Source of the DNA: Fimbriimonadales bacterium | GTDB lineage: Bacteria > Armatimonadota > Fimbriimonadia > Fimbriimonadales > JABRVX01 | NCBI GenBank assembly: GCA_045862955.1 | Contig: BTVI01000011.1 | Location: forward strand, 3,187-67,186 | DNA: 64,000 nt | Reading direction: 5' to 3' | Shown: piece by piece, positions 8,083 through 19,396 of the stretch | How the letters are laid out: the number at the start of each line of letters is the position of its first letter | Position numbering within the stretch: position 1 is the stretch's first letter | Notes under the pieces: model-generated | Database searches by the model: none | Told to the model about the DNA's origin: nothing | Seen by the model: only the letters and a program-made list of their open reading frames with translations | Translations under genes and position numbers: made by a program

Positions 8083-8356
8083 ACCGCATGCCGCGGCCTC
8101 GGCTTCTGCTGGGGCGTTCCCGACAACTGCTCCTATGCTCCGGGTATCCTCGCACCCTTGTTGCGGCCGGCGCGGATGCGGGGGCTCACATGCGGGCAGA
8201 AACCCGAGCAGTCGCCAGCTACGTGGCAGGCTCGGTTGTAAGAGACGCCGTGAGGCGTGGGCGCTCCAGCGTTGGGGGTCTATCGTTTCGTCGGGATGCG
8301 GCGGTAGACGGCTCGCAACAGTCGAAGCATCCCTAGAAACTCTAGGAGATACGACG

Positions 8357-8743
8357 ATGCATGTTTCCAAGGACGACGTGGAAGTGAAGATGGAGATTCC
8401 GGGTGCAGTGATCCGTCAGCGGATGGACTTCGGTGACGCTTCCGGCTACGGCAGGATCAGCGCCGAGTACTTCAGTCTCTCGGCGGGCGTGGATACGACC
8501 GCGCTATTCGAGGGGCTGGACGGCAACGCGTGCCAGTGCCCGCACTGGGGCTTCGTGCTCCGCGGTCGGATCACCACGACGGACGCGAACGGCGCGAAGG
8601 AGACGGTCAAGGAGAACGACCTCTTCTACTGGCCGCCCGGACACAACGTGAGGGTAGATGCGGACGCGGACATCATCATGTTCAGCCCTCAGCGCGAGCA
8701 TAAGCACGTCATTGACCACATGATCGCGAAGGTGCAGGGCTAG
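8357..8743 (+). CDS. Cupin domain protein
   Basis: MHVSKDDVEVKMEIPG...CPHWGFVLRGRITTTD...FYWPPGHNVRV. AGGAG RBS at 8344-8348. The ORF-track start 8078 lies in non-coding-looking sequence. Confidence 0.7.
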   Translation: MHVSKDDVEVKMEIPGAVIRQRMDFGDASGYGRISAEYFSLSAGVDTTALFEGLDGNACQCPHWGFVLRGRITTTDANGAKETVKENDLFYWPPGHNVRVDADADIIMFSPQREHKHVIDHMIAKVQG

Positions 8744-9046
8744 GCCTAGCGCGGCGGGGCGGATGCATGAGGTGCGGGCAGTTCGCCTGCAACCTCCTCG
8801 TGCGTCCGCCCTACTGTATTTATCCTCCACGTCTGCCAACGCTGCCGAAGCGGGCGACAGACGTTCGACGCGGCTGGGCGCGTAGCCTCTCCACCCCCTG
8901 CGAGCTTCGCGTCCCTCTACGACCTTGGCGTGACTATCCTGGTTCGCCAGTGAGCAGCGGAGAAGGCTAGGAAGCGACAGCACGAGCGGACAACTCACAC
9001 AGTCTGATTGCCATAGCGCTCGGCAGGAGCCCAGTACAATGATCCC

Positions 9047-11446
9047 ATGAACGTACCTGGCCGCCTCGGGTCCCTGCCTACGCTCTTCCTGCTCTCTGCG
9101 CTGCTTACACTATTTGGCCCTACGGCCTGGGCGGCTCCGGGGCCACGCACCACGATCCTCGTCCCCCTGTCCGCCTCGCCGAGTTGGAAGGACATGGCAT
9201 TCCTCGCCGCCGTGCCAGCCGCCACAGTGGCTAACAACGGAGCGCCATCGTTGATCGCACTCGAGGAGACGTTGCAGGTTGGTCCCGAGGTCCAGGACTA
9301 TGCGCGCAGGTACCACCCAGACCGGTGCGTTCTCATCGCCGAAGAGCGGGTCGAGATAGCGCTCGGCCCACGCAAGGCGAGCACGACCCAGGCCAAGTCG
9401 GCCCTCGAGGCCTCTGTGGGACTCAGCAGAGCGTTCTGGAAGTCCAGTCGCATGGCGGTCGTCTGCTCAGAGGACGACTACGCTTCGGCCCTCGTGGCTG
9501 CTCCGCTCGCTGCCCTCCTGAAGTCACCGCTACTGTTCGCCCGCGGGCGGGGCACGTCCGATGCGACGGTCAAGGAACTGACGAGGCTCGAAGTGCGCGA
9601 GGTGATAACCGTAGGTCCCGTCCGTAGTCTGGCGCACCGACGGAGCTGGAAGCTAGCCGCTTTGGACAACGCGCTGGATGTAGCCGCGTGGGCCAGGGCG
9701 CGTGGGCTCGGGGTCCGCTATCTAGCCGTCGTCAACCCACAGGACCGTAGCCGCGGGGTAGTCAGGAAACTCTCGCTGGCAGGCGCGCTGCTCGCGGCAG
9801 GGCGAGGTGGGCTCGTTGCTCCTCTCGCCTACGACGTTCGCTGGAAGCACCCGAGCAAGGCCTCCCCTCTCGACGGAGCGGTCCCGGCTGGAGTTCCGAC
9901 GTCGGTAGCACCCGCCAAGGCAGGCAGCATCGTGCTCGACGGAGAGGCGTACCCCTTCGTCTTGACGGGTGAGCCGGAAGAGCGGCACCTGCGACTATCG
10001 ATCGACGCGAATCGGGATGGGCAGTACGGCCAGGTGGGGGAAGGTCCGTTCGCTTCCGGTGACACCGTACGGCTTGGAGGCAAGACGTACGCGATTTCCC
10101 TCGGCACGCGCACCGGCTTCGGCAAGACCGATGTACACCTAACATGGCCGACGGCGGAGCAGCTCTGTCGTGACCTGCGGGGCTTTTACCGCGCGATCGG
10201 AGCGCCGCCGGAGCATCTCTGTCTCGTCGGCTTCCCGGACGCCATCCCGCAGGCCATTATCGGCCACGGCGGAGTGGTAGAGGAGCAGGTGTCCGACTTG
10301 CCCTATTCCAACGCAGACGAGGACCCCTTCGCCGAAATAGGGGTGGGGCGCGTCATCGCCGAGAACGTGTCATTTGCGACGCTCTACGCCAGCCGCGTCC
10401 TGACCTACCACGACTTGCTCAGTGCCGAGTGGCAGAACCGGGCTTGCCAGGCCGAGTGGGAAACTTCCTTCAGGGGCTTGTTCGAGAACGTAGGCTTCGA
10501 GGCGAGCTACGTACACACCGAGGAGGCTTTGGCGTGGGAGAAGCCTCCGGCAAACGGAAACCCCGGAGTTCGCGAACAGAGCTTTGGTCAGAACTCGCCT
10601 CTGGCCAACTGCGCCGCGATCACCCACGCTAGCCACTCCTGGTGGCGTGCCCTCGGCAGCACCTTTTCGTGGGATGCGACCGTGCTTATGGCCCCTGCGG
10701 TCGTCGAGTCGGGCGGCTGCGGCACGGCCTGCATCGATCGCGAGCCCGACTGTCGGTCGGTCGTTGCGCGCCTGTTTCGCCAGGGTGCGGTCGCTTTTCG
10801 TGGGGCCACGCGGGAGAGCCCGGCGGAAAGCCAGCCAGGACGTCAGGAGTTCTGGAACGGAGTGCTAGCAGGAGCCTCTGTCGGACAGGCGCATAGGCGC
10901 GCGGCGAATAGCACCATGCTTGCAGTACTGGACCTGAACGAAGGGCCCGAGGGCATATACCGCTACTCCCTGAACATCCACACGCTGTTCGGCGATCCCG
11001 CGCTTGTCATGTACCTACCAGCGAAGCCACGGTCGCGGCCGGCATGCGTATCCGTGGAAGGTGACACGGTCTCCGTGCACGCTCCGGAGAGATGGTTGCC
11101 TGTCGAGTTCACCCCTCCTTCGGACTGGAAGGAGTGGGAGGGCAAGCACCTGTACGTGGTTCGTGGAGCGGGAGCCTATGCACTGTCCGACTGGTGCGGG
11201 CAGGGCTACGATCTCGAGCAAATGTATGTCACCGTGGAGTTCACGTCCCGCAGACGTGTCACGAGCGTGAAGCAGGTGCAGACACCCCCAGCGCCGCTCG
11301 GATGGCGAGGAACTTGGCACTGCGATCCCAACCCGGACGGCTCATACACCTACCGCTGGGCGGTGCGACTGATCGACTTCGACCAGATCACGGGAAGGGT
11401 GAAGAGCGCCATAGACCGCCTCGACTACCAGGTGTCATTCGAGTAG
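9047..11446 (+). CDS. Secreted protein: three CWB2-like (cell-wall-binding repeat 2) units + clan CD (C25/gingipain-like) peptidase-like region
   Basis: Signal peptide ...LTLFGPTAWAAP. CWB2-like ...VVCSEDDYASALVAAPLAALLKSPLLFARG...VREVITVGP. Later SDLPYSNADEDPFAEIGVGRVIA, and a His...Cys pair ITHASHSWW...VVESGGCGTAC. Motif-level call only. Confidence 0.45.
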   Translation: MNVPGRLGSLPTLFLLSALLTLFGPTAWAAPGPRTTILVPLSASPSWKDMAFLAAVPAATVANNGAPSLIALEETLQVGPEVQDYARRYHPDRCVLIAEERVEIALGPRKASTTQAKSALEASVGLSRAFWKSSRMAVVCSEDDYASALVAAPLAALLKSPLLFARGRGTSDATVKELTRLEVREVITVGPVRSLAHRRSWKLAALDNALDVAAWARARGLGVRYLAVVNPQDRSRGVVRKLSLAGALLAAGRGGLVAPLAYDVRWKHPSKASPLDGAVPAGVPTSVAPAKAGSIVLDGEAYPFVLTGEPEERHLRLSIDANRDGQYGQVGEGPFASGDTVRLGGKTYAISLGTRTGFGKTDVHLTWPTAEQLCRDLRGFYRAIGAPPEHLCLVGFPDAIPQAIIGHGGVVEEQVSDLPYSNADEDPFAEIGVGRVIAENVSFATLYASRVLTYHDLLSAEWQNRACQAEWETSFRGLFENVGFEASYVHTEEALAWEKPPANGNPGVREQSFGQNSPLANCAAITHASHSWWRALGSTFSWDATVLMAPAVVESGGCGTACIDREPDCRSVVARLFRQGAVAFRGATRESPAESQPGRQEFWNGVLAGASVGQAHRRAANSTMLAVLDLNEGPEGIYRYSLNIHTLFGDPALVMYLPAKPRSRPACVSVEGDTVSVHAPERWLPVEFTPPSDWKEWEGKHLYVVRGAGAYALSDWCGQGYDLEQMYVTVEFTSRRRVTSVKQVQTPPAPLGWRGTWHCDPNPDGSYTYRWAVRLIDFDQITGRVKSAIDRLDYQVSFE

Positions 11447-11497
11447 TGTTGCTTCGCACCGGTCGCAAAGCTCCCGAGCCAGGGACAGCGCAGACCC

Positions 11498-11524
11498 ATC
11501 ACGCTGATCCTGTCGAAGCGTGCG
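11498..11524 (+). repeat. Short hairpin motif ATCACGCTGATCCTGTCGAAGCGTGCG (family copy 2)
   Basis: Near-identical to 8056-8082. Lies 52 nt after stop 11446. Confidence 0.6.
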
Positions 11525-11618
11525 GCCTCTTCCGAAATCGCGTCGACCCGACAGCGTCGGCGTTCGGGTGCTACGTGGAGTTTGCAGGCCACAGAGTGGG
11601 TTGCTGCTGCTCTTCTAT

Positions 11619-11849
11619 CCCCCCACATCCGCGATGTGGAGGGTAGAGTAGTGATAGGAACCTGTTGCTGCTATCCCTCCACATCCGCGATGTGGAGGGT
11701 AGCGTAGCGCCAGGAACCTACCATCCCTCCGCATCCGCGATGTGGAGGGTCGAGTAGCGGTAGGAGCCTACCATCCCTCCGCATCCGCGATGTGGATGGT
11801 AGCGTAGCGATAGGAACCTACCATCCCTCCACATCCGCGATGTGGAGGG
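11619..11849 (+). repeat. Palindromic-hairpin tandem array I (5 units)
   Basis: 25-nt core CCCTCCACAT-CCGCG-ATGTGGAGGG starting at 11619, 11675, 11725, 11775, 11825. The last four have an exact 50-bp period. Linkers are near-identical (TAGCGTAGCGCCAGGAACCTACCAT and variants). Confidence 0.9.
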
Positions 11850-11904
11850 ATAGCACGGTTGTAGAACTTCAGCTCGCCGTTTCCCGAGGATGGGTTACTG
11901 GCAA

Positions 11905-12011
11905 CGTCATGCTGAGCCTGTCGAAGCATGGGGCCGCCGGCCAAGCGTTTTCGAATTCACTAGGTGGCTGTGGCACTCACAGATGCATGCTTCGACAGGC
12001 TCAGCATGACG
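11905..12011. mobile_element. MITE-like unit: perfect 26-bp inverted repeat with 55-nt spacer
   Basis: CGTCATGCTGAGCCTGTCGAAGCATG (11905-11930) and its exact reverse complement (11986-12011). The arms belong to the same motif family as 8056 and 11498. Confidence 0.55.
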
Positions 12012-12132
12012 GTCCCGGACGGCTGCACGCTCTCACTGACCCATCCTCCTCCTGTGTTGTGGCAGCGCGCAGACCGGCTGGGTCGACGGCCTCCACCGGG
12101 TTGTTGGCGCAGTAGACGTACAGGTTCGCCAT
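12001..12132 (-). pseudogene. RHS core-end stub (orphan remnant)
   Basis: Minus-strand translation (M)ANLYVYCANNPVEAVDPAGLRAATTQEEDGSVRACSRPGPSC*. Carries the NLYxYxxNNPVxxxDPxGL core/toxin demarcation motif. Its 5' end abuts hairpin copy 12133-12157 and its stop lies in a MITE arm. Confidence 0.65.
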
Positions 12133-12257
12133 GCCTCCGCATCCGCGATGTGGAGGGTCGAGTAGCGACAGGAACCTACCATCCCTCCACATCCGCGATG
12201 TGGAGGGTCGAGTAGCGGTAGGAGCCTACCATCCCTCCGCATCCGCGATGTGGAGGG
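12133..12257 (+). repeat. Palindromic-hairpin tandem array II (3 units)
   Basis: Cores at 12133, 12183, 12233 (50-bp period), in the same orientation and with the same linker as array I. Confidence 0.9.
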
Positions 12258-12349
12258 ATAGCAGCAGCAGCAGCTCGTGCCCACTTGGTCCCAGGTATCA
12301 ACGCACCCCCCGTGTCGTAAGCGTCGGCACTACCATACCATCTACTCTA

Positions 12350-12902
12350 CCCTCCACATCGCGGATGTGGAGGGATTGAGGATAGCCGGATGTGGAGGGT
12401 AGAGTAGTGACAGCAACATCGTTCCCAGGCCACCGTGTGCGCTCACGCCTGGCGGAGCGCTGCGAGATACCGGGGCATCGCGTCCATCACTCCTCGTACC
12501 TTGCCATCCCTCCACATTCGCGATGTGGAGGGATAGCATCCCTGCATACCGGCTCATGCCAACTGCGTCCCAGGGATCAACGCACCCACCCCGTGTCGTG
12601 AGCGCCGTCACCACTACACCCTCCACATCGCGGATGTGGAGGGATGGCCCGTCACCACTACACCCTCCACATCGCGGATGTGGAGGGATGGCACGCATCA
12701 ACGGCCGACTGGCGACAGGCGCAGCCTAGGTCCTCGCTAGCTAGTTGAACCATGGGATCCAATCCCAGTGCCAGTGTTCTGGTGTACCGGGGTTCCCCCC
12801 GTGCGGACCCCACCAATTGCGTGGTGACAGGCCCCATTTGGGTTTGCCTCGCCATGTCCACCCTATTGCTATCCCTCCACATCGCGGATGTGGAGGGATA
12901 GC
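12350..12902. repeat. Dispersed and inverted copies of the same hairpin
   Basis: Cores at 12350 (inverted, loop CGCGG), 12386-12399 (right arm only), 12508 (loop TCGCG), 12619 and 12663 (inverted, 44 bp apart), 12873 (inverted). The last sits in a perfect 15-bp-arm palindrome at 12868-12902, GCTATCCCTCCACAT CGCGG ATGTGGAGGGATAGC. Confidence 0.85.
12741..12866 (-). pseudogene. Trp-rich tail fragment resembling the C-terminus of toxin domain A
   Basis: Minus frame reads IGWTWRGKPKWGLSPRNWWGPHGGNPGTPEHWHWDWIPWFN* (9 Trp in 41 codons). Compare toxin A tails ...HRWGPKGGPSTPWWKWPHYNRRPG...RPWEGW*. The 5' side is cut by hairpin 12868-12902. Confidence 0.35.
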
Positions 12903-12988
12903 GAACCTCGAACCGGTCGAGCTGCGAGGGGTCGGTAGCTACTGCTGGGATGTCCCCCTGCTTCACCATAGCGCTCGTGACGCTAGTC

Positions 12989-13339
12989 CTACCAACCGGC
13001 GCAGGCAAGGGCGATCGCCGCTACCGTCGCGAACAAAGCTAGTGTACAGAGGACGCTCGCAGACATGCACCCGTGACCGCGGTCCCACCTTGCCGCTGCT
13101 TCGCGCCAGTACTCGTCATTGAACCGCTCCGGCGGGGTCACGTACAGCTCCAGCATTCTAACCACCGTGGCCACCACCTTCACGCGCACCGGGCGACCAC
13201 AGGCATCCCATATTCGGTAGTCGACCTCCGTATCGGAGTCGTGGAACTCCATAGCCGCCCCAAGCTCCGCGGCGCTGGCGTAGGACGACGGCTCCTCGTC
13301 CAAGTAGTACTCCACAAGGAGCGGAAATTGCGGCTCCAA
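12989..13339 (-). CDS. Immunity protein A2 (cognate of toxin A2), C-terminal TM helix
   Basis: 116 aa, TTG start 4 nt after the toxin stop. Homologous to 15609..15959 (shared ...EF.DSD...DYR.WD...RPV.VK..AT....LELY..PP...). Ends in hydrophobic VLCTLALFATVAAIALACAG. Confidence 0.7.
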   Translation of the reverse strand: MEPQFPLLVEYYLDEEPSSYASAAELGAAMEFHDSDTEVDYRIWDACGRPVRVKVVATVVRMLELYVTPPERFNDEYWREAAARWDRGHGCMSASVLCTLALFATVAAIALACAGW

Positions 13340-13343
13340 GAGA

Positions 13344-13928
13344 CTACCAACCTTCCCAGGGCCGATGCCTTCCGATCCCGGGCCGCCGGTTGTAGTGCGG
13401 CCACTTCCACCACGGAGTCGATGGCCCGCCCTTGGGCCCCCACCTGTGTACGTCCAGCGAAAAGGTCCGGCTTCCGCGGTGGTAGAAACTCAGGCCGCCA
13501 CCTCCAGTATTGCGATAGCGCATGAGTTTGGCGCCGCGGCCCCACGCCGTACCACCCGCCTGTAGGCCCCCACCGATGCCAATTGAGACTCCGACCCCGA
13601 CTACCTGGCCACCCATGTACCAGCCGGAGCCAGTGTCCACGGTATCGGCAAGCCCTCCGAGGTCCCTAACGATCTCCGTACCTCCGAACGAGAGGAAATC
13701 CCCCATCCCTGCGAAGAAGTCGGTGAGGTTGTCGAACCAGTCCCTCGGCTTCGGAGTGATCTTCGAGACGAAGTCCGCGACTTCCTCCATGTCGTAGCCC
13801 GGGCCCTCCGCGGTCCACAGCCCGTCCCACCAGGGAGCAGGCGTGGCCGTACGCAACCCGGCGGGGTCCGCCGCTTCCACCGGGTTGTTGGCGCAGTAGG
13901 CACAGAGGCTCGGCGCGGAGTCTCGGCG
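13344..13928 (-). CDS. Orphan polymorphic-toxin cassette A2 (RHS junction + toxin domain A)
   Basis: The frame opens right after a TGA at 13929-13931: RRDSAPSLCAYCANNPVEAADPAGLRTATPAPWWDGLW...GGQVVGVGVSIGIGGGLQAGG...HRPWEGW*. Only about 17 core residues remain and there is no credible start codon or RBS. Confidence 0.75.
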   Translation of the reverse strand, partial: RRDSAPSLCAYCANNPVEAADPAGLRTATPAPWWDGLWTAEGPGYDMEEVADFVSKITPKPRDWFDNLTDFFAGMGDFLSFGGTEIVRDLGGLADTVDTGSGWYMGGQVVGVGVSIGIGGGLQAGGTAWGRGAKLMRYRNTGGGGLSFYHRGSRTFSLDVHRWGPKGGPSTPWWKWPHYNRRPGIGRHRPWEGW

Positions 13929-13932
13929 TCAC

Positions 13933-14394
13933 TCACGGTACGAACTCCATCGTGAGCATCCCGATCCAGGTGTGTCCTGGCGGTGGGGGGCCATCTGAGA
14001 GGTCCCATCCACCCCACGAATGCGCCATGAGATGATCGTGATCGGCCACTCCGCGCGCCAAGTGCCTTTCGATGACTTCTTGGATGACCGCTAGCCCTCG
14101 CGAGTCGGCAGCGATGCGTAGCTCAGTGCGCTCCGTCAGGCTGATTAGGATGTAGTGGTCCTCCGTGGTGGTCTCCGTGGCTGTCATAATTACGGCGTCT
14201 ATTAGCCTGTTCTTCCCCCACTGGGGCGTAGCGCAGGTCTCAACACTGCCCAACGCCGAGCTCCCGAAAAGTCTCTCCCCTCCAGATACTGCCAGCGCGC
14301 GAAGCGTGTCGGCCAGCAAGCGTCCACCATCGGCGTCGTAGATCAGATACGCCGTGGGTTCCGGCCGCGAATCGTCAATCTCTGCGCATATCAT
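13933..14394 (-). CDS. Immunity protein B (cognate of toxin B)
   Basis: 153 aa. ATG 13 nt after the toxin B stop, with GGAG RBS. No recognisable family. Position is typical of an immunity gene. Confidence 0.65.
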   Translation of the reverse strand: MICAEIDDSRPEPTAYLIYDADGGRLLADTLRALAVSGGERLFGSSALGSVETCATPQWGKNRLIDAVIMTATETTTEDHYILISLTERTELRIAADSRGLAVIQEVIERHLARGVADHDHLMAHSWGGWDLSDGPPPPGHTWIGMLTMEFVP

Positions 14395-14407
14395 CGGGCT
14401 TGCTCCA

Positions 14408-15301
14408 CTACTGCATCGGCCAGCGTCGCTTCTCGGGCCTTGGCTGCCCGGGGACCCTAGGGTAGTTCACATCCACATGAGGGCCGAAAGGTGGCCCATG
14501 ATCAGGATCTAGGTGATAGGAGAAGCCAGACCTTGGGTTGACGTAGCCACCTCGTCCAGAGACCGGATCAGGACCTCTCACGACAAACCCCTTCTTCCGA
14601 AACATCTCATCCAGTTCCCGGGGGGACTTGCCTTTGAACGGGCTCTGCCATCCTTCACCACCTGTTGCCCCAGCGATCGCGACGCCGATGCCGACGTAGT
14701 TCTCCAGAACCTGCTCGGCTCCGCGTGCCGCCGTCTGTCCGATGGCCCGGCTTCCGGCCCCATACTGATCGATTAGGTCGGCAAGTTCGTCGCCTTCCTC
14801 GGTACCGTCGCGGTACGGGTCACCCGTGATTGCCCCGAAACCAGTCGTACCAGGCGCCAGTTTCGTTTGGTTGTACCCCAGTGCCCACTTCAGCGCGTTC
14901 CACGGCAGGCTCAGGAGCCATTCGGTACCGCTTACGACGCGATCCCACCAGCTCTTTTCATCGGGCAGATTGGTGGCCCGCCCCAACGCCGAGAAGTGTC
15001 GCAGCCCGTCCGGGTCCGCCGCTTCCACGGGGTTGTTCGCGCAGTAGACGTACAGGTTCGGGTGGCCGCCCGCCATGCCGATGGGGTCGCGCTGCAGCCA
15101 GCGGCCCACCGTGGGGTCGTACTCCCTGGCCCCGGCGTGATACAGCCCCGTGGAAGCGATGTACCGGTACCCGACCGACCCGTTCCAGCGGAAGGGATTG
15201 TCATTCACCACGTTCGAGTGGCTCGCAACCAGGGTCCCCCACGCGTGTTGGAGCTCGGTCGGGCTACGCCCTCCCTCTCTCCAACACGCTCCGTGCCACA
15301 A
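14408..15301 (-). CDS. Orphan RHS C-terminal fragment: last ~70 aa of RHS core + ~190-aa toxin domain B
   Basis: NPFRWNGSVGYRYIASTGLYHAGAREYDPTVGRWLQRDPIGMAGGHPNLYVYCANNPVEAADPDGL, then a unique C-terminal domain ending ...GGYVNPRSGFSYHLDPDHGPPFGPHVDVNYPR.... The ORF is preceded by TGA TGA and its start is a TTG with no RBS. Confidence 0.8.
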   Translation of the reverse strand: MWHGACWREGGRSPTELQHAWGTLVASHSNVVNDNPFRWNGSVGYRYIASTGLYHAGAREYDPTVGRWLQRDPIGMAGGHPNLYVYCANNPVEAADPDGLRHFSALGRATNLPDEKSWWDRVVSGTEWLLSLPWNALKWALGYNQTKLAPGTTGFGAITGDPYRDGTEEGDELADLIDQYGAGSRAIGQTAARGAEQVLENYVGIGVAIAGATGGEGWQSPFKGKSPRELDEMFRKKGFVVRGPDPVSGRGGYVNPRSGFSYHLDPDHGPPFGPHVDVNYPRVPGQPRPEKRRWPMQ

Positions 15302-15388
15302 TCATCACCAACGCGGGAGGACTCACCTTAGGATGTCTTCCAAGAAGGGGGCAGGCCACCAGCTGCTCTTTAGGGGCTCCCCCTCTTC

Positions 15389-15544
15389 CTATACCACCAC
15401 GTGCACATGGAGTGTCGCCTGACGGGTCTCTCGATCAACCGCCGCCGGTACTAGGTCGAGCTCTCCATCGTGGATCAGCGATGCCAGTCGATCCAACTCG
15501 GCGCTGTCGTGAACCTCGAATAGGACTGTGCGGTCGTTCACCAT
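15389..15544 (-). CDS. Possible 51-codon ORF between cassettes
   Basis: Below ORF-track cutoff. ATG 15544: MVNDRTVLFEVHDSAELDRLASLIHDGELDLVPAAVDRETRQATLHVHVVV*. Could be an immunity or antitoxin remnant. Confidence 0.3.
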   Translation of the reverse strand: MVNDRTVLFEVHDSAELDRLASLIHDGELDLVPAAVDRETRQATLHVHVVV

Positions 15545-15608
15545 AGTGTTAGTTCAATCTGTCTCAGAGCGAAGCAGTGTGGGCCCAGGCGCCCAGCCCT
15601 AGCCCGTG

Positions 15609-15959
15609 TCAGGACAGTGACGCAAATGCAACCCAAGCCAGCACGAAGCCGATCGCCATGCCACTCCCAAGGAGTGCACAGCCGGGTTTCTGGCGTGCTG
15701 GGGTGGTCACTCGCCAGGACGGATCGGTGTAGTGCGCGGGCGGGTCTTCATACAACTCGAGCAGCTTCAGCTCGGTCGCCCAGGCCTTTACGTGCACAGG
15801 TCTATCTAGTCCATCCCACACCCGGTAATCTGGATCGTCCGAGTCGAAGAACTCCTGATCCGTTGCCAGCTCATCGCCTGAATCGTACAACGTGTCAGCA
15901 TCGGGCGGGTCGTATCTGAACTCCACACGAAACGGTGGCTGTGGTTGCTCCGGTTGCAC
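15609..15959 (-). CDS. Immunity protein A1 (cognate of toxin A1), C-terminal TM helix
   Basis: 116 aa, GTG start 3 nt after the toxin A1 stop. Paralog of 12989..13339. Ends in ALLGSGMAIGFVLAWVAFASL. Confidence 0.7.
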   Translation of the reverse strand: MQPEQPQPPFRVEFRYDPPDADTLYDSGDELATDQEFFDSDDPDYRVWDGLDRPVHVKAWATELKLLELYEDPPAHYTDPSWRVTTPARQKPGCALLGSGMAIGFVLAWVAFASLS

Positions 15960-15962
15960 TAC

Positions 15963-16975
15963 CTACCACCCTTGCCAGGGTCGATGGCGGCCTATGGCGC
16001 CACCTGGTCCTTCGAATCTCCTGTGATAGTGCGGCCACCTCCACCAGGGCGCTGGAGGTCCACCCTTCTTCGGCACCCACCTGTGGATGTCTGCCGTGAA
16101 CACTCGCTCTCCACGGTTGTAGAAGTTCAGGCCGCCACCTCCAGTATTGCGATAGCGCATGAGTTTGGCGCCGCGGCCCCACGCCGTACCACCCGCCTGT
16201 AGGCCCCCACCGATGCCAATTGAGACTCCGACCCCGACTACCTGGCCGCCCATGTACCATCCGGAGCCAGTGTCCACCACATCGCCAAGCCCTCCGAGGT
16301 CCCTAACGATCTCCGTACCTCCGAACGAGAGGAAATCCCCCATCCCTGCGAAGAAGTCGGTGAGGTTGTCGAACCAGTCCCTCGGCTTCGGAGTGATCTT
16401 CGAGACCAGCTCGGCAACGTCCTCCATGTCGTAGCCTGGGCCATCGTTCGTCCACAGCCCGGCCCACGCAGGTCCCCGGGTGGCCCGGCATCGCGGAGCT
16501 CGTGCGGGGCAGGCGACTCTGTAAAGTGCAGGAATGAACGGACCCCGTCAGGATCGATTGGATGACCCGTGGTGGTTGAGAACGCTAGCGCTGAGCCGTC
16601 CACATCGTAGACGTAGTAGCGGTCAGCCCACCCCGTTCCGTCGTGGAACCAGTTCAGACCCTTGCTAGCCGCCTCGCCAACTTGCTTCAGGTGGATGAAG
16701 GCAGTTCCGAGCAGGTTGCCGATCGCGCGATTGGCGCCGTGCTCGTTTGCCTGAGGAGCTATGACGAAGGACAGGTCAATGGGCAGTTGGCCGACAACCG
16801 GTGCAGACAGCGCTATGCGCCCGCCGCCGGTAAAGGCACCCCCGGCTCGCCACTGCGTCTGTGGCGTCTGGTCTGGAATCGTGCTCTGCGCCCGGACAAA
16901 GGCAGCGCTTGGTGCGAATAGCACCCCGAGTAACGCGATTCCTCTTGTCACGAAGGAGACCATCATCGTCCGCAT
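15963..16975 (-). pseudogene. Signal-peptide mini-RHS-like toxin A1, frameshifted at the DPxGL junction
   Basis: ATG 16975 (GGAGGG RBS): MRTMMVSFVTRGIALLGVLFAPSAAFVRAQS...RYYVYDVDGSALAF...SPAPHELRDAG. The frame then changes at 16483/16484 into ...ATRGPAWAGLWTNDGPGYDMEDV...toxin A. Both frames are open across the junction. Confidence 0.65.
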
Positions 16976-17109
16976 GAACGAACCCTCCGTTGTCGTTTCG
17001 CCAGTGACGCTTCGCGAAATGGCGTACACGGTCATTCTGCCAGCATACGGCTTCTTCCTGCCAGGTACTTTTACGGGTTTTCGCCTTCTTGACGCGCAGC
17101 CCAACCGCA

Positions 17110-17142
17110 ACCGGCCCGGGGGAGGTGGTTGCCCGGGCCGGT
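17110..17142 (-). terminator. Hairpin terminator after the PFOR operon
   Basis: ACCGGCCCGGG ... CCCGGGCCGGT (11-bp stem, 11-nt loop), 32 nt after stop 17174. Followed on the minus strand by TTGCGGTTGG. Confidence 0.5.
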
Positions 17143-17173
17143 AGGTGTCGGGTCTAAGGAGGAGGGAGGTGCG

Positions 17174-19396
17174 TTACAGCGTCGGGTCCTCGTGCATCGC
17201 CTTCAGGCGTCGCCAGCGGCGGTCCACCTCGGCTTGCAGGTCCGCGATCTCTTGTGCGTGGTTCTCTCCGCGAAGGTAGACGCCCGCCTTGCCCATTGCC
17301 CCAAAGAGCTCTTCCACGCCTATTTTCTTTCCGGTCGCCTCGGGATCATAGTTCAGTTTCGTGATCCCGTTCTCGATTTCCAGCAGCGGGAAGAAGCAGC
17401 TGTCCAGCGCTTTCTGCACGACTTCGGGCCCTGCCCAGTCGGGCGTTACCCAGTTCAGCGGGCACACGGAGAAGGACTTCACGAACACGAAGTTGCCGTC
17501 CCTTACGTGCTGTTGCGCCTTACGCGCCTTTCGAATGGCATCTTCCACGTGGGTTTCCGCCACGGTCGCGATGTATCGGCAGTGCGTGCCACGCATCAGT
17601 TCGATCATGTCTTTGTGGTGGAAGGCCTTGCCGCCCGGAGAGGTGGTAGTGAAGAGCCCCTTCGGCGCCGTGTAGCATAGCTGCGCACCCGTGTTCGCGT
17701 ACACGTTATTGTCGTACTCGAAATAGATGAACGGGTGGTTGCGAATGGCTGCACTCAGCAGCTGGTCGAGGCCGATGTCGCCCGACCCGTCTCCGCCCAC
17801 TGCGATCACCGTGGTCTCCTCGGTGATCAGCCCCTTGGACCGAGCCAGGCGGTATGTCTCGACGATTCCCACCGCCGTGGACGAGTTGTTGTGGAACAGG
17901 TTGTGCATGTAGGGCACGCGGAACGAGGTGTCCGGGAATCCCGTGGTGACGACCATGCCGCACCCGGTGTTGAACAGCAACACGGTGGGTCCATCGATTC
18001 CAGAGAGGAAGATGTCCAGGTTCACGAACGCACCGCACCCTGGGCACGACTGCGGGTGAGCGATGCGGTGTGGCATGTCCGAGGCAAGGGTGCGCAGCGT
18101 CTGAATATTCACTCGCTCTCCCAGCCCTTCGTTCACCACGAAGTCCTTCGGGTCTTCGGGTTCGAACCGCTTGGTCGGCAGCTTCTCGGGCGAGCCGGGC
18201 CAGTGGCCGTAATAGTCGAACTTCGGCACCTCTTCGCCGCGGTTAGCGGCCAGTGCCTGCCCGAACAGCTTCTCCGCATCCTGCCACGTGAAAATGAGAC
18301 CGCCGAGGCCGTACACTCGGGTGAGCAGCCGGCAGTCGTTGCGCTCCTCCTGAAGCACGGTCGCAATCTCGTTGGTGACCCAGCCGGCCGGGCCTCCGTA
18401 CTGATCGGCGCGCTCGGCGATCAGCGCGGTCTTCGCGTTCCTGAAAGCTTCCGCCACCTCCTTGGAAGGGAAGGGGCGCAGTACGCGAAGCGAAATGGAG
18501 CCTACCTTGTCGCCCTTCTCGCGCAGCTTGTCCACGGCATCACGGATGGTCTCGGATGCCGAGCAGAGCGAGAACATCACCGTCTCCGGCTTGTCCTCCG
18601 TGCGGTAGGTGTCTATGATGTCGTACTTGCGACCCGAGAACTTCGCATAGTCCTCGAGGATGCCCGGGATGACCTCCATGGCTTCCTTCATCGCCAGGTG
18701 GAGCTGGTACTTGTTGTTGATAAGGTCGTCGTTCATGTATGGCCCGAAGGTCTTCGGGTTGTGCACGTCGAGGATAGAGGGACGCGGAGGCTTCGGCCCG
18801 ATCCACGCCTTTACATCGTCGCGGTTGGAGAAGATCTCGATGCGCCGCGTTCCGTGACTAGTGAAGAAGCCGTCGTACACCACCATCGCCGGCAGGCTCA
18901 CGCGCTCTGCCCACTTCAGCGCGATGATGTTCATATCGTACACTTCTTGCACGTTGTTGGCGAGGAGGATCAGCCATCCTGTGCCGAGCGTGTGCAGAAA
19001 GTCGGAGTGGTCGCACTTGATGTTGAGCGGGGCAGAGACCGCGCGCGCGGCGATGTTCATCACCATCGGCAGCCGAAGGCCGGACAGCACCGGCAGCTCC
19101 TCGAACTTCAGCAGCAGTCCCTGGGCGGATGTCACGTCTACCGCCCTCGCGCCCGCCGCCGCGGCTCCCGTGCAGATGCCGATTGCCGCCAGCTCGCTAT
19201 TAGCGGGCACGAACACCATGTCCAGCTCGCCCTTTGCTATCTTCGCGGCGACCGCTTCCCCCACTTCGCTGGACGGTGTGATCGGATAAAAGCCCTCGAG
19301 GTCGTACCCGATAGCGGCGATGGCCTCGGCAGCGGCGTAGTTGCCGCTGAGGACGGCCACCTTCTGTTCGGCAGTCTTATGCGTTAACAGCGTCAC
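17174..19396 (-). CDS. 2-oxoacid (pyruvate-type):ferredoxin oxidoreductase, fused alpha-beta subunit
   Basis: 740 aa. N-terminal PorA-like LSGNYAAAEAIAAIGYDLEGFYPITPSSEV. C-terminal PorB-like CPGCG...GGDGSGDIGLDQL TPP-binding region. Confidence 0.85.
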   Translation of the reverse strand: MTLLTHKTAEQKVAVLSGNYAAAEAIAAIGYDLEGFYPITPSSEVGEAVAAKIAKGELDMVFVPANSELAAIGICTGAAAAGARAVDVTSAQGLLLKFEELPVLSGLRLPMVMNIAARAVSAPLNIKCDHSDFLHTLGTGWLILLANNVQEVYDMNIIALKWAERVSLPAMVVYDGFFTSHGTRRIEIFSNRDDVKAWIGPKPPRPSILDVHNPKTFGPYMNDDLINNKYQLHLAMKEAMEVIPGILEDYAKFSGRKYDIIDTYRTEDKPETVMFSLCSASETIRDAVDKLREKGDKVGSISLRVLRPFPSKEVAEAFRNAKTALIAERADQYGGPAGWVTNEIATVLQEERNDCRLLTRVYGLGGLIFTWQDAEKLFGQALAANRGEEVPKFDYYGHWPGSPEKLPTKRFEPEDPKDFVVNEGLGERVNIQTLRTLASDMPHRIAHPQSCPGCGAFVNLDIFLSGIDGPTVLLFNTGCGMVVTTGFPDTSFRVPYMHNLFHNNSSTAVGIVETYRLARSKGLITEETTVIAVGGDGSGDIGLDQLLSAAIRNHPFIYFEYDNNVYANTGAQLCYTAPKGLFTTTSPGGKAFHHKDMIELMRGTHCRYIATVAETHVEDAIRKARKAQQHVRDGNFVFVKSFSVCPLNWVTPDWAGPEVVQKALDSCFFPLLEIENGITKLNYDPEATGKKIGVEELFGAMGKAGVYLRGENHAQEIADLQAEVDRRWRRLKAMHEDPTL

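Follow-up and report, generated by a model that had tools for sequence, protein, structure and literature searches.

Divergent tails behind a shared core in two predicted orphan Rhs toxin cassettes of a Fimbriimonadales genome

The DNA analysed here, called the window throughout, is a stretch of 64,000 nucleotides of contig BTVI01000011.1 from a metagenome-assembled genome (MAG) of a Fimbriimonadales bacterium (Armatimonadota). On the minus strand, positions 12744-17110 read as an array of orphan Rhs C-terminal (CT) toxin/immunity cassettes, i.e., A1, toxB, A2 and the truncated tail of a third toxin of the A type, A3, and the array lies behind a decayed, shell-less Rhs gene that has kept its signal peptide. 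Toxins A1 and A2 are near-identical in their core and divergent in their tails and in the immunity proteins encoded next to them. Here, we report that the two cores were probably homogenised by gene conversion within the genome, and that the tail of A1, with its immunity gene and a small companion ORF, appears to be a recent arrival from another lineage.

Gene content of the array

The coordinates of the features are collected in Table 1; all genes of the toxin array lie on the minus strand in our survey of the open reading frames (ORFs) of the window. The locus holds neither a full-length main rhs gene nor a YD-repeat shell, and all that lies upstream before the pyruvate:ferredoxin oxidoreductase (PFOR) gene is a signal-peptide fragment of 217 aa. 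This fragment, for which no Pfam match was obtained, has a mechanical frame of 17110-16238 that overlaps toxin A1 at -1 relative to A1. Toxin A1 lacks both an Rhs-core remnant and an upstream partner in its frame; its 5' end is the junction with the signal-peptide ORF, and its homology to A2 and to the sister-genome copy described below begins at ~16485. Toxin A2 has kept the last 18 residues of the Rhs core (LCAYCANNPVEAADPAGL; the end is also given as ..YCANNPVEAADPAGL), which match the last 20 positions of TIGR03696 (E 0.008), but it is without a start or an export signal. The Rhs core part of toxB belongs to the same family, TIGR03696 (E 1.3e-21), and the ORFs of ImmA1 and ImmA2 begin 4-5 nt past the stop of their own toxin. 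An earlier reading of the window from its letters and ORFs (the original prediction) had proposed toxin/immunity modules at this place, and the Rhs-core end of A2, the TIGR03696 part of toxB and homologous pairs in distant Rhs loci bear this out; the Rhs context, the minus strand, A3 (12872-12744) and A1's want of an in-frame delivery domain had escaped it.

Table 1. Features of the toxin array and its flanks, in window coordinates
Feature	Position	Strand	Remarks
Pyruvate:ferredoxin oxidoreductase (PFOR) gene	19396-17174	-	upstream neighbour of the array
Decayed Rhs-type gene, 5' fragment	16460..17110	-	Sec-like signal peptide MRTMMVSFVTRGIALLGVLFAPSAAFVRA/QS, ~190 aa, without YD shell
Toxin A1	15963..16541	-	open from 16541; first ATG 16427 (154 aa)
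Homogenised block, A1 copy	16127..16406	-	sister-genome (L001)-like states in the patch
ImmA1	15609..15959	-	116 aa
orf51	15389..15544	-	51-codon ORF travelling with the A1 cassette; 100% nt identity to L001 10884-11039
Orphan toxB	14408..15301	-	C-terminal Rhs core part (residues 20-100), then unannotated ~195-aa CT
ImmB	13933..14394	-	153 aa, acidic; weak Imm32 match
Toxin A2	13344..13928	-	Rhs-core remnant LCAYCANNPVEAADPAGL, linker, shared module, tail 2
Homogenised block, A2 copy	13490..13769	-	constant 2637-nt register
ImmA2	12989..13339	-	116 aa
A3, third tail-type remnant	12744..12872	-	IGWTWRGKPKWGLSPRNWWGPHGGNPGTPEHWHWDWIPWFN*, truncated at palindromic repeat
25-nt palindrome cluster	11619..12897		13 copies of CCCTCCACATCCGCGATGTGGAGGG, partly in 50-nt tandem units; distal decayed end
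Rhs-core remnant without toxin	12059..12128	-	ANLYVYCANNPVEAVDPAGL
C25-peptidase gene	9047-11446	+	convergent; flank of the array

Identity between toxins A1 and A2

The original prediction had described A2 and A1 as ORFs in direct repeats 2637 bp apart, with a near-identical core that includes a perfect run of about 120 nt, and all of this holds. An automated repeat search returned a 300-nt direct repeat (13431-13730 versus 16068-16367, 91%, spacing 2637), and the 2637-nt register is constant. An ungapped alignment at this offset contains two perfect runs, both 121 nt long (13490-13610 = 16127-16247 and 13649-13769 = 16286-16406), which are separated by a 38-nt patch with 6 mismatches (16248-16285 on the A1 side). 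Over 13490-13769 versus 16127-16406 the copies are identical at 274 of 280 positions, and over 13490-13799 at 298 of 310. The identity is bounded on both sides. It collapses at 13489/16126, which is a codon boundary (GGGG/L), and on the 5' side a 54-nt linker (codon columns 20-37) is only 78% identical, with the similarity gone upstream of ~16485.

The divergence of the last ~50 codons is equally real: an alignment of the tails covers 144 nt and shows 70% DNA identity, with indels amounting to 18 nt. The peptide strings quoted earlier are correct. In amino acids the toxin is about 65% identical, to be set against 37% for the immunity proteins. The latter had been said to match at about half of their positions; they are indeed divergent, and the overall match is lower than that in protein (36-37%; 52% in DNA).

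In the perfect runs there are 0 synonymous differences over ~62 synonymous sites, whereas the proportion of synonymous differences (pS) at the same sites is 0.27-0.47 against the sister-genome orthologue. Given that divergence, the probability of seeing none is ~1e-13 by our own arithmetic, so that chance is excluded as the source of the core identity.

Comparison with a sister genome

Toxin A has only three close homologues among 5.8 billion proteins. A syntenic locus in a sister genome (GCA_964650095.1, hereafter L001; independent assembly L002) encodes one of these, P0001; a narrow alignment to the GTDB representative genomes found no relatives. L001 has a single A gene, and its order is signal-peptide mini-Rhs (308 aa), toxB, ImmB, A, Imm, orf51 and an rhs fragment. 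The N-terminus of the signal-peptide ORF (window 17110-16785) is common to both genomes, and in L001 it runs into 2-3 YD repeats, Rhs core and toxB, the last of which (8148-9400) is split by a frameshift.

We compared A1, A2 and L001, i.e., three sequences, codon by codon and obtained the synonymous (dS) and non-synonymous (dN) divergence of each segment. For the core tracts dS is 0 between A1 and A2 and 0.33-0.73 between either window copy and L001 (0.51 for the A1 core); the dN/dS of about 0.07-0.10 against L001 argues for a real coding domain without constraint at the nucleotide level. Within the 38-nt patch 6 sites distinguish A1 from A2, and at 5 of them A1 has the L001 state. For the tail, A1 and L001 are 97.5% identical (dS 0.06), whereas A1 versus A2 is saturated in dS, with a dN of 0.18. 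ImmA1 is 99.1% identical in nucleotides to its L001 counterpart, all three differences being non-synonymous (dS 0, dN 0.011), and orf51 is 100% identical; ImmA1 versus ImmA2 has dS about 2 and dN 0.6. The flanking genes for PFOR, POR and the C25 peptidase stand at dS 0.59-0.68, ImmB at 0.15 and toxB at 0.34, and the 5' flank of A2 (toxB-ImmB-linker) is collinear at ~88%.

The divergence along the modules is hence far from uniform, and from this segment-wise pattern the histories of core and tail are incongruent. Because dS is 0-0.06 in the tail1-ImmA1-orf51 segment against 0.59-0.68 in the housekeeping flanks, we read this segment as a recent lateral import or cassette exchange. In coordinates, 15173-16126 of the window (tail 1, ImmA1, orf51 and spacer) is 95-100% identical to L001 10300-11255.

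The shared core module and the tail

A profile was built from four close sequences and searched against 1.84 billion representatives (50% identity clusters), and it found 617 proteins at E<=1e-3. In the full-length hits, which are RHS/teneurin-type YD-shell proteins of 1386-2180 aa, the domain forms the very C-terminal end. Among the 151 best hits, DPxG lies at most 30 residues upstream of the domain in 82, 107 match the core only and 26 the whole domain. Tails of 40 aa or more follow the domain in 139 cases and group into 47 BLAST clusters, HINT-containing ones included. By this distribution the shared core is a generic, widespread and unannotated module that stands in front of at least 47 different tail types. 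The division of toxin A into a core and a divergent tail, as first drawn, is therefore real in its position and needs a correction in its meaning: the family-invariant residues lie in the tail, and the core is generic.

Other loci show the two modules in other combinations. Full-length Rhs genes carrying this CT exist elsewhere (L004, 1499 aa; P0061, 2180 aa), one locus (L005) has the same post-DPxGL module in two cassettes with different tails, and in another (L008) an N-terminal module of a different kind precedes the same tail, which pairs with another acidic protein. These distant loci, L005 (1-8807) and L008 (1-6498), show long orphan Rhs CT/immunity arrays, with Ntox33, Ntox24/Imm53 and several unannotated types among their cassettes.

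The N-terminal module is helical, ~75-100 aa long, and follows the Rhs DPxGL; its signature is AGxGD-x2-SFGxT-x3-R ... SGxY-x2-G, then a GxxxG zipper helix. Across 150 relatives the conserved positions are A39 (0.91), G40 (0.99), G42 (0.90), D43 (0.96), F47, G48 (0.96), T50 (0.96), R54 (0.96), S67, Y70 (0.95), G73 (1.00) and G77 (0.85). In A1 and A2 the glycine zipper is G79xxxG83xxxG87xxxG91, plus G73xxxG77; it lies in the predicted helix 68-84 and extends past its end. Small residues abound at positions 73-96 across the same relatives, and the hydrophobicity of the zipper helix is only moderate, with a Kyte-Doolittle maximum over 19 residues (KD19) of 1.22.

The second module, a tail of ~55-70 aa, is basic and beta-rich, with many Trp, His and Arg residues; D-x-H-R, P-H-Y-H and H-R-P-W are family-invariant in it, and a small acidic immunity protein always comes directly after it. 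In the whole-domain subfamily (30 aligned) the conserved tail residues are H127, H145, Y146, H147, H160, R161, P162 and W163, together with a GGGG turn. The tails of the window carry a net charge of +7, a pI of 11.6 and six Trp. A2 is the sole member of the 30 without His147, having Asn in its place (PHYNRR, window 13399-13401 region), and toxin A2 may be attenuated or inactive through H147N.

An AlphaFold2 model from the 30 sequences reached a moderate pLDDT of 70 (the 4-sequence model, at pLDDT 32, was unusable). It has helices at 13-23, 30-45, 49-56 and 68-84, and a four-stranded sheet at 97-104, 109-116, 119-129 and 141-148. With the strands so placed, the recombination breakpoint (111/112) would lie inside the beta-domain, after the first strand. 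In a sequence profile search of the PDB only the Rhs core end was matched.

Immunity proteins

ImmA1 and ImmA2 both consist of an acidic soluble part of ~90 aa (net -13 with pI 4.15 in ImmA1; net -9 in ImmA2) and one C-terminal transmembrane (TM) helix, at residues 94-112 and 96-114, respectively, with KD19 of 2.0-2.5. Their immunity role is predicted from their position and from their covariation with the toxin type. The family motif, EFFDSxDxD..V.D..G.PV.VK..L.LE, is found in the ORF downstream of the tail in L001, L004, L005 and L007. In L004, where the Rhs is of the full-length signal-peptide kind, an ORF of its own encodes the TM segment, and the immunity gene has a second, orphan copy. 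The homologues in the orphan array L005 (69 aa, acidic) and in L007 (70 aa, pI 4.2) have neither a TM helix nor a signal peptide. Since homologues follow the same tails in other loci, and those of L005 and L007 lack the TM helix, the family appears to track the tail and to be basically a small soluble cytoplasmic protein, to which the TM anchor would be an accessory in this genome.

State of the array and its decayed end

Toxin A1 is joined at -1, out of frame, to the signal-peptide ORF at ~16490, in the stretch CCACCCGGGGACC (window 16460-16541). A programmed -1 frameshift that would join the two was considered and rejected, as CCACCCGGGGACC contains no X XXY YYZ slippery site; the junction is more likely either an out-of-frame recombination junction or a homopolymer indel error. 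A single-base indel at this place, real or due to sequencing error, would yield a secreted fusion of ~375 aa without an Rhs shell.

A1 is without Rhs core and out of frame, A2 is startless and carries H147N, A3 is truncated, there is no YD shell, and toxB is frameshifted in L001; for these reasons we consider the array, as far as its sequence can tell, to be largely a reservoir or relic. The immunity genes may be the selected parts, protecting against the toxins of neighbours. By analogy with the case in PMC3967940, it would take recombination with an intact rhs gene at another place before the toxins could be deployed.

A3 was recognised by tblastn with P0003 (68% identity, E 2e-20), and the hidden Markov model matches it at positions 117-163. 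It has neither a core module nor a recognisable immunity gene, and a repeat (12873-12897) abuts it. This repeat belongs to the cluster of the palindrome CCCTCCACATCCGCGATGTGGAGGG, whose copies we counted at up to 3 mismatches: there are 20 strand-matches, which are confined to 1.3 kb of the 64-kb window, with 0 expected by chance. The cluster adjoins the end of A3 (12872) and the Rhs-core remnant (12128), in a region that is absent from L001, and it looks like repeats of the repetitive extragenic palindromic (REP) or bacterial interspersed mosaic element (BIME) kind colonising the decayed end of the array (12900-11600). We rejected the view that the palindromes spaced by 50 nt at 11619-12257 are CRISPR-like, the inter-repeat segments being themselves repeated (D1/D4). 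At 11820-12058 the Rfam model RF02901 (AaHKsRNA41) matches both strands with 58 and 46 bits (E 1e-11 and 3e-8; gathering score 97), which is probably a palindromic interspersed repeat (with spurious 'LSLSKH / LRQAQHD' peptides) and not a small RNA.

As for the smaller features, a repeat family (D5) connects 13843-13912, 14991-15060 and 12059-12128, all of them in Rhs-core sequence. The ~195-aa CT of toxB had no family match; it carries a Gly-rich helix of its own (NYVGIGVAIAGATGGEG) and an HLDPDHGPP..PHVDV motif, and it matches the shared-module profile weakly (E 6e-6). ImmB matches Imm32 with E 1.1e-5 and 25.7 bits, below the cut-off of 27, and orf51 matched no family in Pfam or NCBIfam. A scan for promoters and terminators over 11400-17300 gave 0 sites, fewer than in shuffles, and is uninformative for this host phylum. 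In the NCBI record of the Fimbriimonadales MAG, A2, ImmA2 and ImmA1 are present in identical form as AMXMBFR61_09690, _09680 and _09720, and toxin A1 is unannotated; A2 is also identical to a database protein (P0002), for which an exact look-up returned nothing on record.

Origin of the mosaic

We favour an account that we hold to be probable as a whole: the locus is an orphan Rhs cassette array in which A1 and A2 are alleles of one unannotated, two-module Rhs-CT family, toxin A, the core of which was homogenised by intragenomic gene conversion, and the A1 tail, ImmA1 and orf51 were imported. At the orthologous position after ImmB the two lineages would differ in allele, with tail 2/ImmA2 in the window and tail 1/Imm in L001, and the breakpoint would fall exactly at the module boundary. 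The window lineage would have an additional, recently exchanged tail1-ImmA1-orf51 cassette, and the A1 core would have been overwritten by resident A2-type sequence in two gene-conversion tracts that spared the 38-nt patch of donor type; the A2 tail and ImmA2 would be a different, anciently diverged allele. The shared module may in this way act as the homology arm for swapping units of tail plus immunity gene below the level of the whole CT. For the near-identity of the cores in particular, homologous recombination within the genome, i.e., gene conversion, seems to be the most economical reading. Recent conversion of the core was one of two explanations that the original prediction had offered, and it is favoured by the core dS of 0 against the saturated dS of the tails and by the values of 0.51 and 0.06 that the A1 core and the A1 tail, respectively, show against L001. 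The other, in-situ co-diversification of tail and immunity gene under diversifying selection with the core held by purifying selection, we regard as very improbable. It would explain why the variable parts are the tail and the immunity gene, which are adjacent to each other, and why immunity has diverged more than the toxin, but the runs have dS 0 at codons that are well diverged from L001, and purifying selection cannot erase synonymous differences. Moreover, the saturated dS of tails and immunity genes between A1 and A2 means old alleles, and the A1 tail and ImmA1 recur almost identically in a genome with a housekeeping dS of ~0.6, as an imported cassette would. A constraint on the nucleotides themselves, such as an RNA element, was rejected as well in view of the many synonymous changes in L001; Rfam has no match within the array genes. 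It is also unlikely, in our view, that a tandem duplication of one toxin A unit gave the identical cores and that a foreign cassette later replaced the tail and immunity gene of one copy, with no gene conversion. The order in the window (A-Imm-orf51-rhs-toxB-ImmB-A) is a circular permutation of that in L001 (rhs-toxB-ImmB-A-Imm-orf51-rhs), and this, with the rhs fragment that L001 keeps after orf51, is compatible with a unit duplication or a Campbell-type insertion; the A1 tail and ImmA1 are clearly imported under this course of events too. However, with a 5' linker that is only 78% identical, the identical tract has a limit on either side and is not a duplication that runs to one end; the L001-like patch implies an A1 core that was once donor-like and was partly overwritten. 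Duplication would still need a recombination breakpoint at the same core/tail junction, and only the order of events would differ.

Several points weigh against the favoured account of conversion and import. The direction and number of the recombination events are read from three sequences and one sister genome, and the assignment of the patch variants to the two copies comes from the MAG assembler. Both perfect runs are exactly 121 nt long, which may be a coincidence or may reflect the longest exact repeat that an assembler could pass. One or both toxins may be non-functional relics, since no secretion or Rhs part is in frame with A1 and a near-invariant His is missing from A2. Pfam and NCBIfam gave no informative family for A1 and A2, the immunity proteins, the 30 members or 10 core-only relatives, the best Foldseek match to the PDB had an E of 1.1 (with a query model of pLDDT 70), and the delivery role that we propose below for the shared module leans on analogy with the CdiA-CT entry domain and the Tde1 zipper. 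The equal runs and the assembler's phasing of the patch, in a window that comes from a MAG (AMXMBFR61), would also fit an artefact of metagenome assembly, in which a collapse or chimera of strain variants created the repeat identity or the tandem order. We give such an artefact hardly any credence. A Logan unitig (L006; k=31, run DRR491769), which is independent of the MAG, equals window 16156-13740 at 100% over 2417 nt, from the A1 run to the A2 run with zero mismatches, and it ends 30 nt inside each shared run, as expected of a k=31 graph. As it matches without mismatch, the order tail1-ImmA1-orf51-rhs-toxB-ImmB-A2 is independently assembled and the tandem is not an artefact of the MAG assembler; by the same unitig, the reads contain the junction k-mers core-tail1 and linker2-core, and no branch occurs between the two copies. 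The adjacency of orf51 and rhs is also kept, independently, in L001.

Proposed function

The shared module may serve delivery or membrane translocation by helping the CT, once released, across the target membrane; a Sec-exported surface Rhs, as in L004, would need a self-contained entry function of this kind. The tail would be the toxic, immunity-recognised module, neutralised in the cytoplasm of the producer or at the inner face, and probably acts inside the target cell, either as a small enzyme that depends on His or as a domain that binds nucleic acid or metal; the conserved H127, H145, H147 and H160 make an enzymatic or metal-binding role possible. Taken one step further, and quite tentatively, the core could be an undescribed post-DPxGL domain that is at once a self-translocation module for Sec-exported Rhs toxins not delivered through a type VI secretion system (T6SS) and a recombination handle, and the HYH...HRPW tail could be a new class of ~60-aa His-dependent cytoplasmic toxins with an acidic immunity family of its own.

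The original prediction had suggested a membrane-targeting toxin from the zipper and the TM helices of the immunity proteins. Those features are all real; the inference drawn from them is weak, given the soluble homologues in L005 and L007, and a membrane-targeting mechanism is unproven. In its full form, i.e., toxin A as a whole being a glycine-zipper pore-forming or depolarising toxin in the target membrane that is blocked by a membrane-anchored immunity protein, we find the idea rather doubtful. It can draw on the G79-G83-G87-G91 zipper in a predicted helix, the small residues at 73-96 across the 150 relatives, the TM helix of both ImmA1 and ImmA2, a Trp/Arg-rich tail that could sit at the membrane interface, and the precedents of Tse5-CT, EsxX and the ionophores of contact-dependent inhibition (PMC10684867, PMC12744356, PMC11630599). 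Yet at least 47 unrelated tails, HINT-containing ones included, stand behind this one zipper module, an arrangement that fits generic delivery better; the strictly conserved residues are polar (four His, Arg, Tyr) and lie in the tail; the zipper is only moderately hydrophobic; and Pfam, NCBIfam, PDB and Foldseek gave no sequence or fold match to known pore formers.

We consider the pattern a clear but fairly ordinary example of polymorphic toxin diversification, of a kind that is already well known. What the locus offers is an unusually clean and quantified view of this process within one gene. The unit exchanged would be smaller than the classical Rhs CT, a tail of ~55 aa plus the immunity gene, moved via the conserved post-cleavage module, because dS is 0 between the resident cores, ~0.5 between core and orthologue, and, for the tail, ~0.06 relative to a foreign genome that has its housekeeping genes at ~0.6-0.7. 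Three families also come into view that occur commonly in metagenomes and have neither a Pfam or NCBIfam entry nor a solved structure: the AGxGD/FGxT module, the HYH...HRPW tail and the EFFDSxD acidic immunity protein. These are tractable targets for studying how non-T6SS Rhs toxins enter target cells.

Comparison with known systems

Small His-rich nuclease toxins of the HNH/EndoVII fold (Tox-HNH, -GHH, -WHH and -AHH), reportedly set out among the polymorphic toxins by Zhang et al. in 2012, serve here as a lead only. Like them, toxin A has a small basic C-terminal domain with several invariant His, modelled as a beta-hairpin and then a short helix, and an acidic cytoplasmic immunity protein; unlike them, its tail has no HH dyad. 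Tox-HNH-type Pfam models matched none of the 30 family members at E<=0.1, and Foldseek gave no His-Me finger match.

With the glycine-zipper effectors, i.e., Tde1, whose translocation depends on its zipper (PMC10240207), the Rhs pore-former Tse5-CT (PMC10684867) and EsxX (PMC12744356), toxin A shares a repeated GxxxG helix that is N-terminal to, or part of, the effector, the Rhs scaffold in the case of Tse5, and, in some of them, a membrane-associated immunity protein. It differs in that there is no detectable homology, the zipper here is embedded in a larger domain with a polar signature (AGxGD/FGxT/R), and the immunity family is mostly soluble. CdiA-CT, with an entry domain and a toxin domain (PMC9424206; 10.64898/2026.05.07.723447), offers a likeness in architecture: a conserved N-terminal CT sub-domain stands before unrelated toxic domains, the immunity tracks the C-terminal domain, and sub-domains are swapped (PMC9424206). 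The scaffold here is Rhs, however, with no sequence relationship, and an entry function of the module would follow by analogy.

The precedents for the array as a whole are the orphan rhs-CT/rhsI systems, in which recombination has been described (PMC3967940, Koskiniemi et al. 2014; PMC3150448, Poole et al. 2011). The present locus departs from them in having no intact main rhs, with a signal-peptide fragment only and a mini-Rhs of 2-3 YD repeats in the sister genome, in its host, an Armatimonadota MAG, and in an Rhs of the Sec-signal type that is not linked to PAAR or the T6SS; the homology used for recombination, too, would lie inside the CT, in the post-DPxGL module, and not in the Rhs core. 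In the remaining respects it resembles them: toxin fragments keep a piece of the Rhs core (..DPxGL) and have no start or export signal of their own, a small immunity gene follows each toxin in a tandem array, and the cassettes appear to be reshuffled by homologous recombination between repeated conserved segments.

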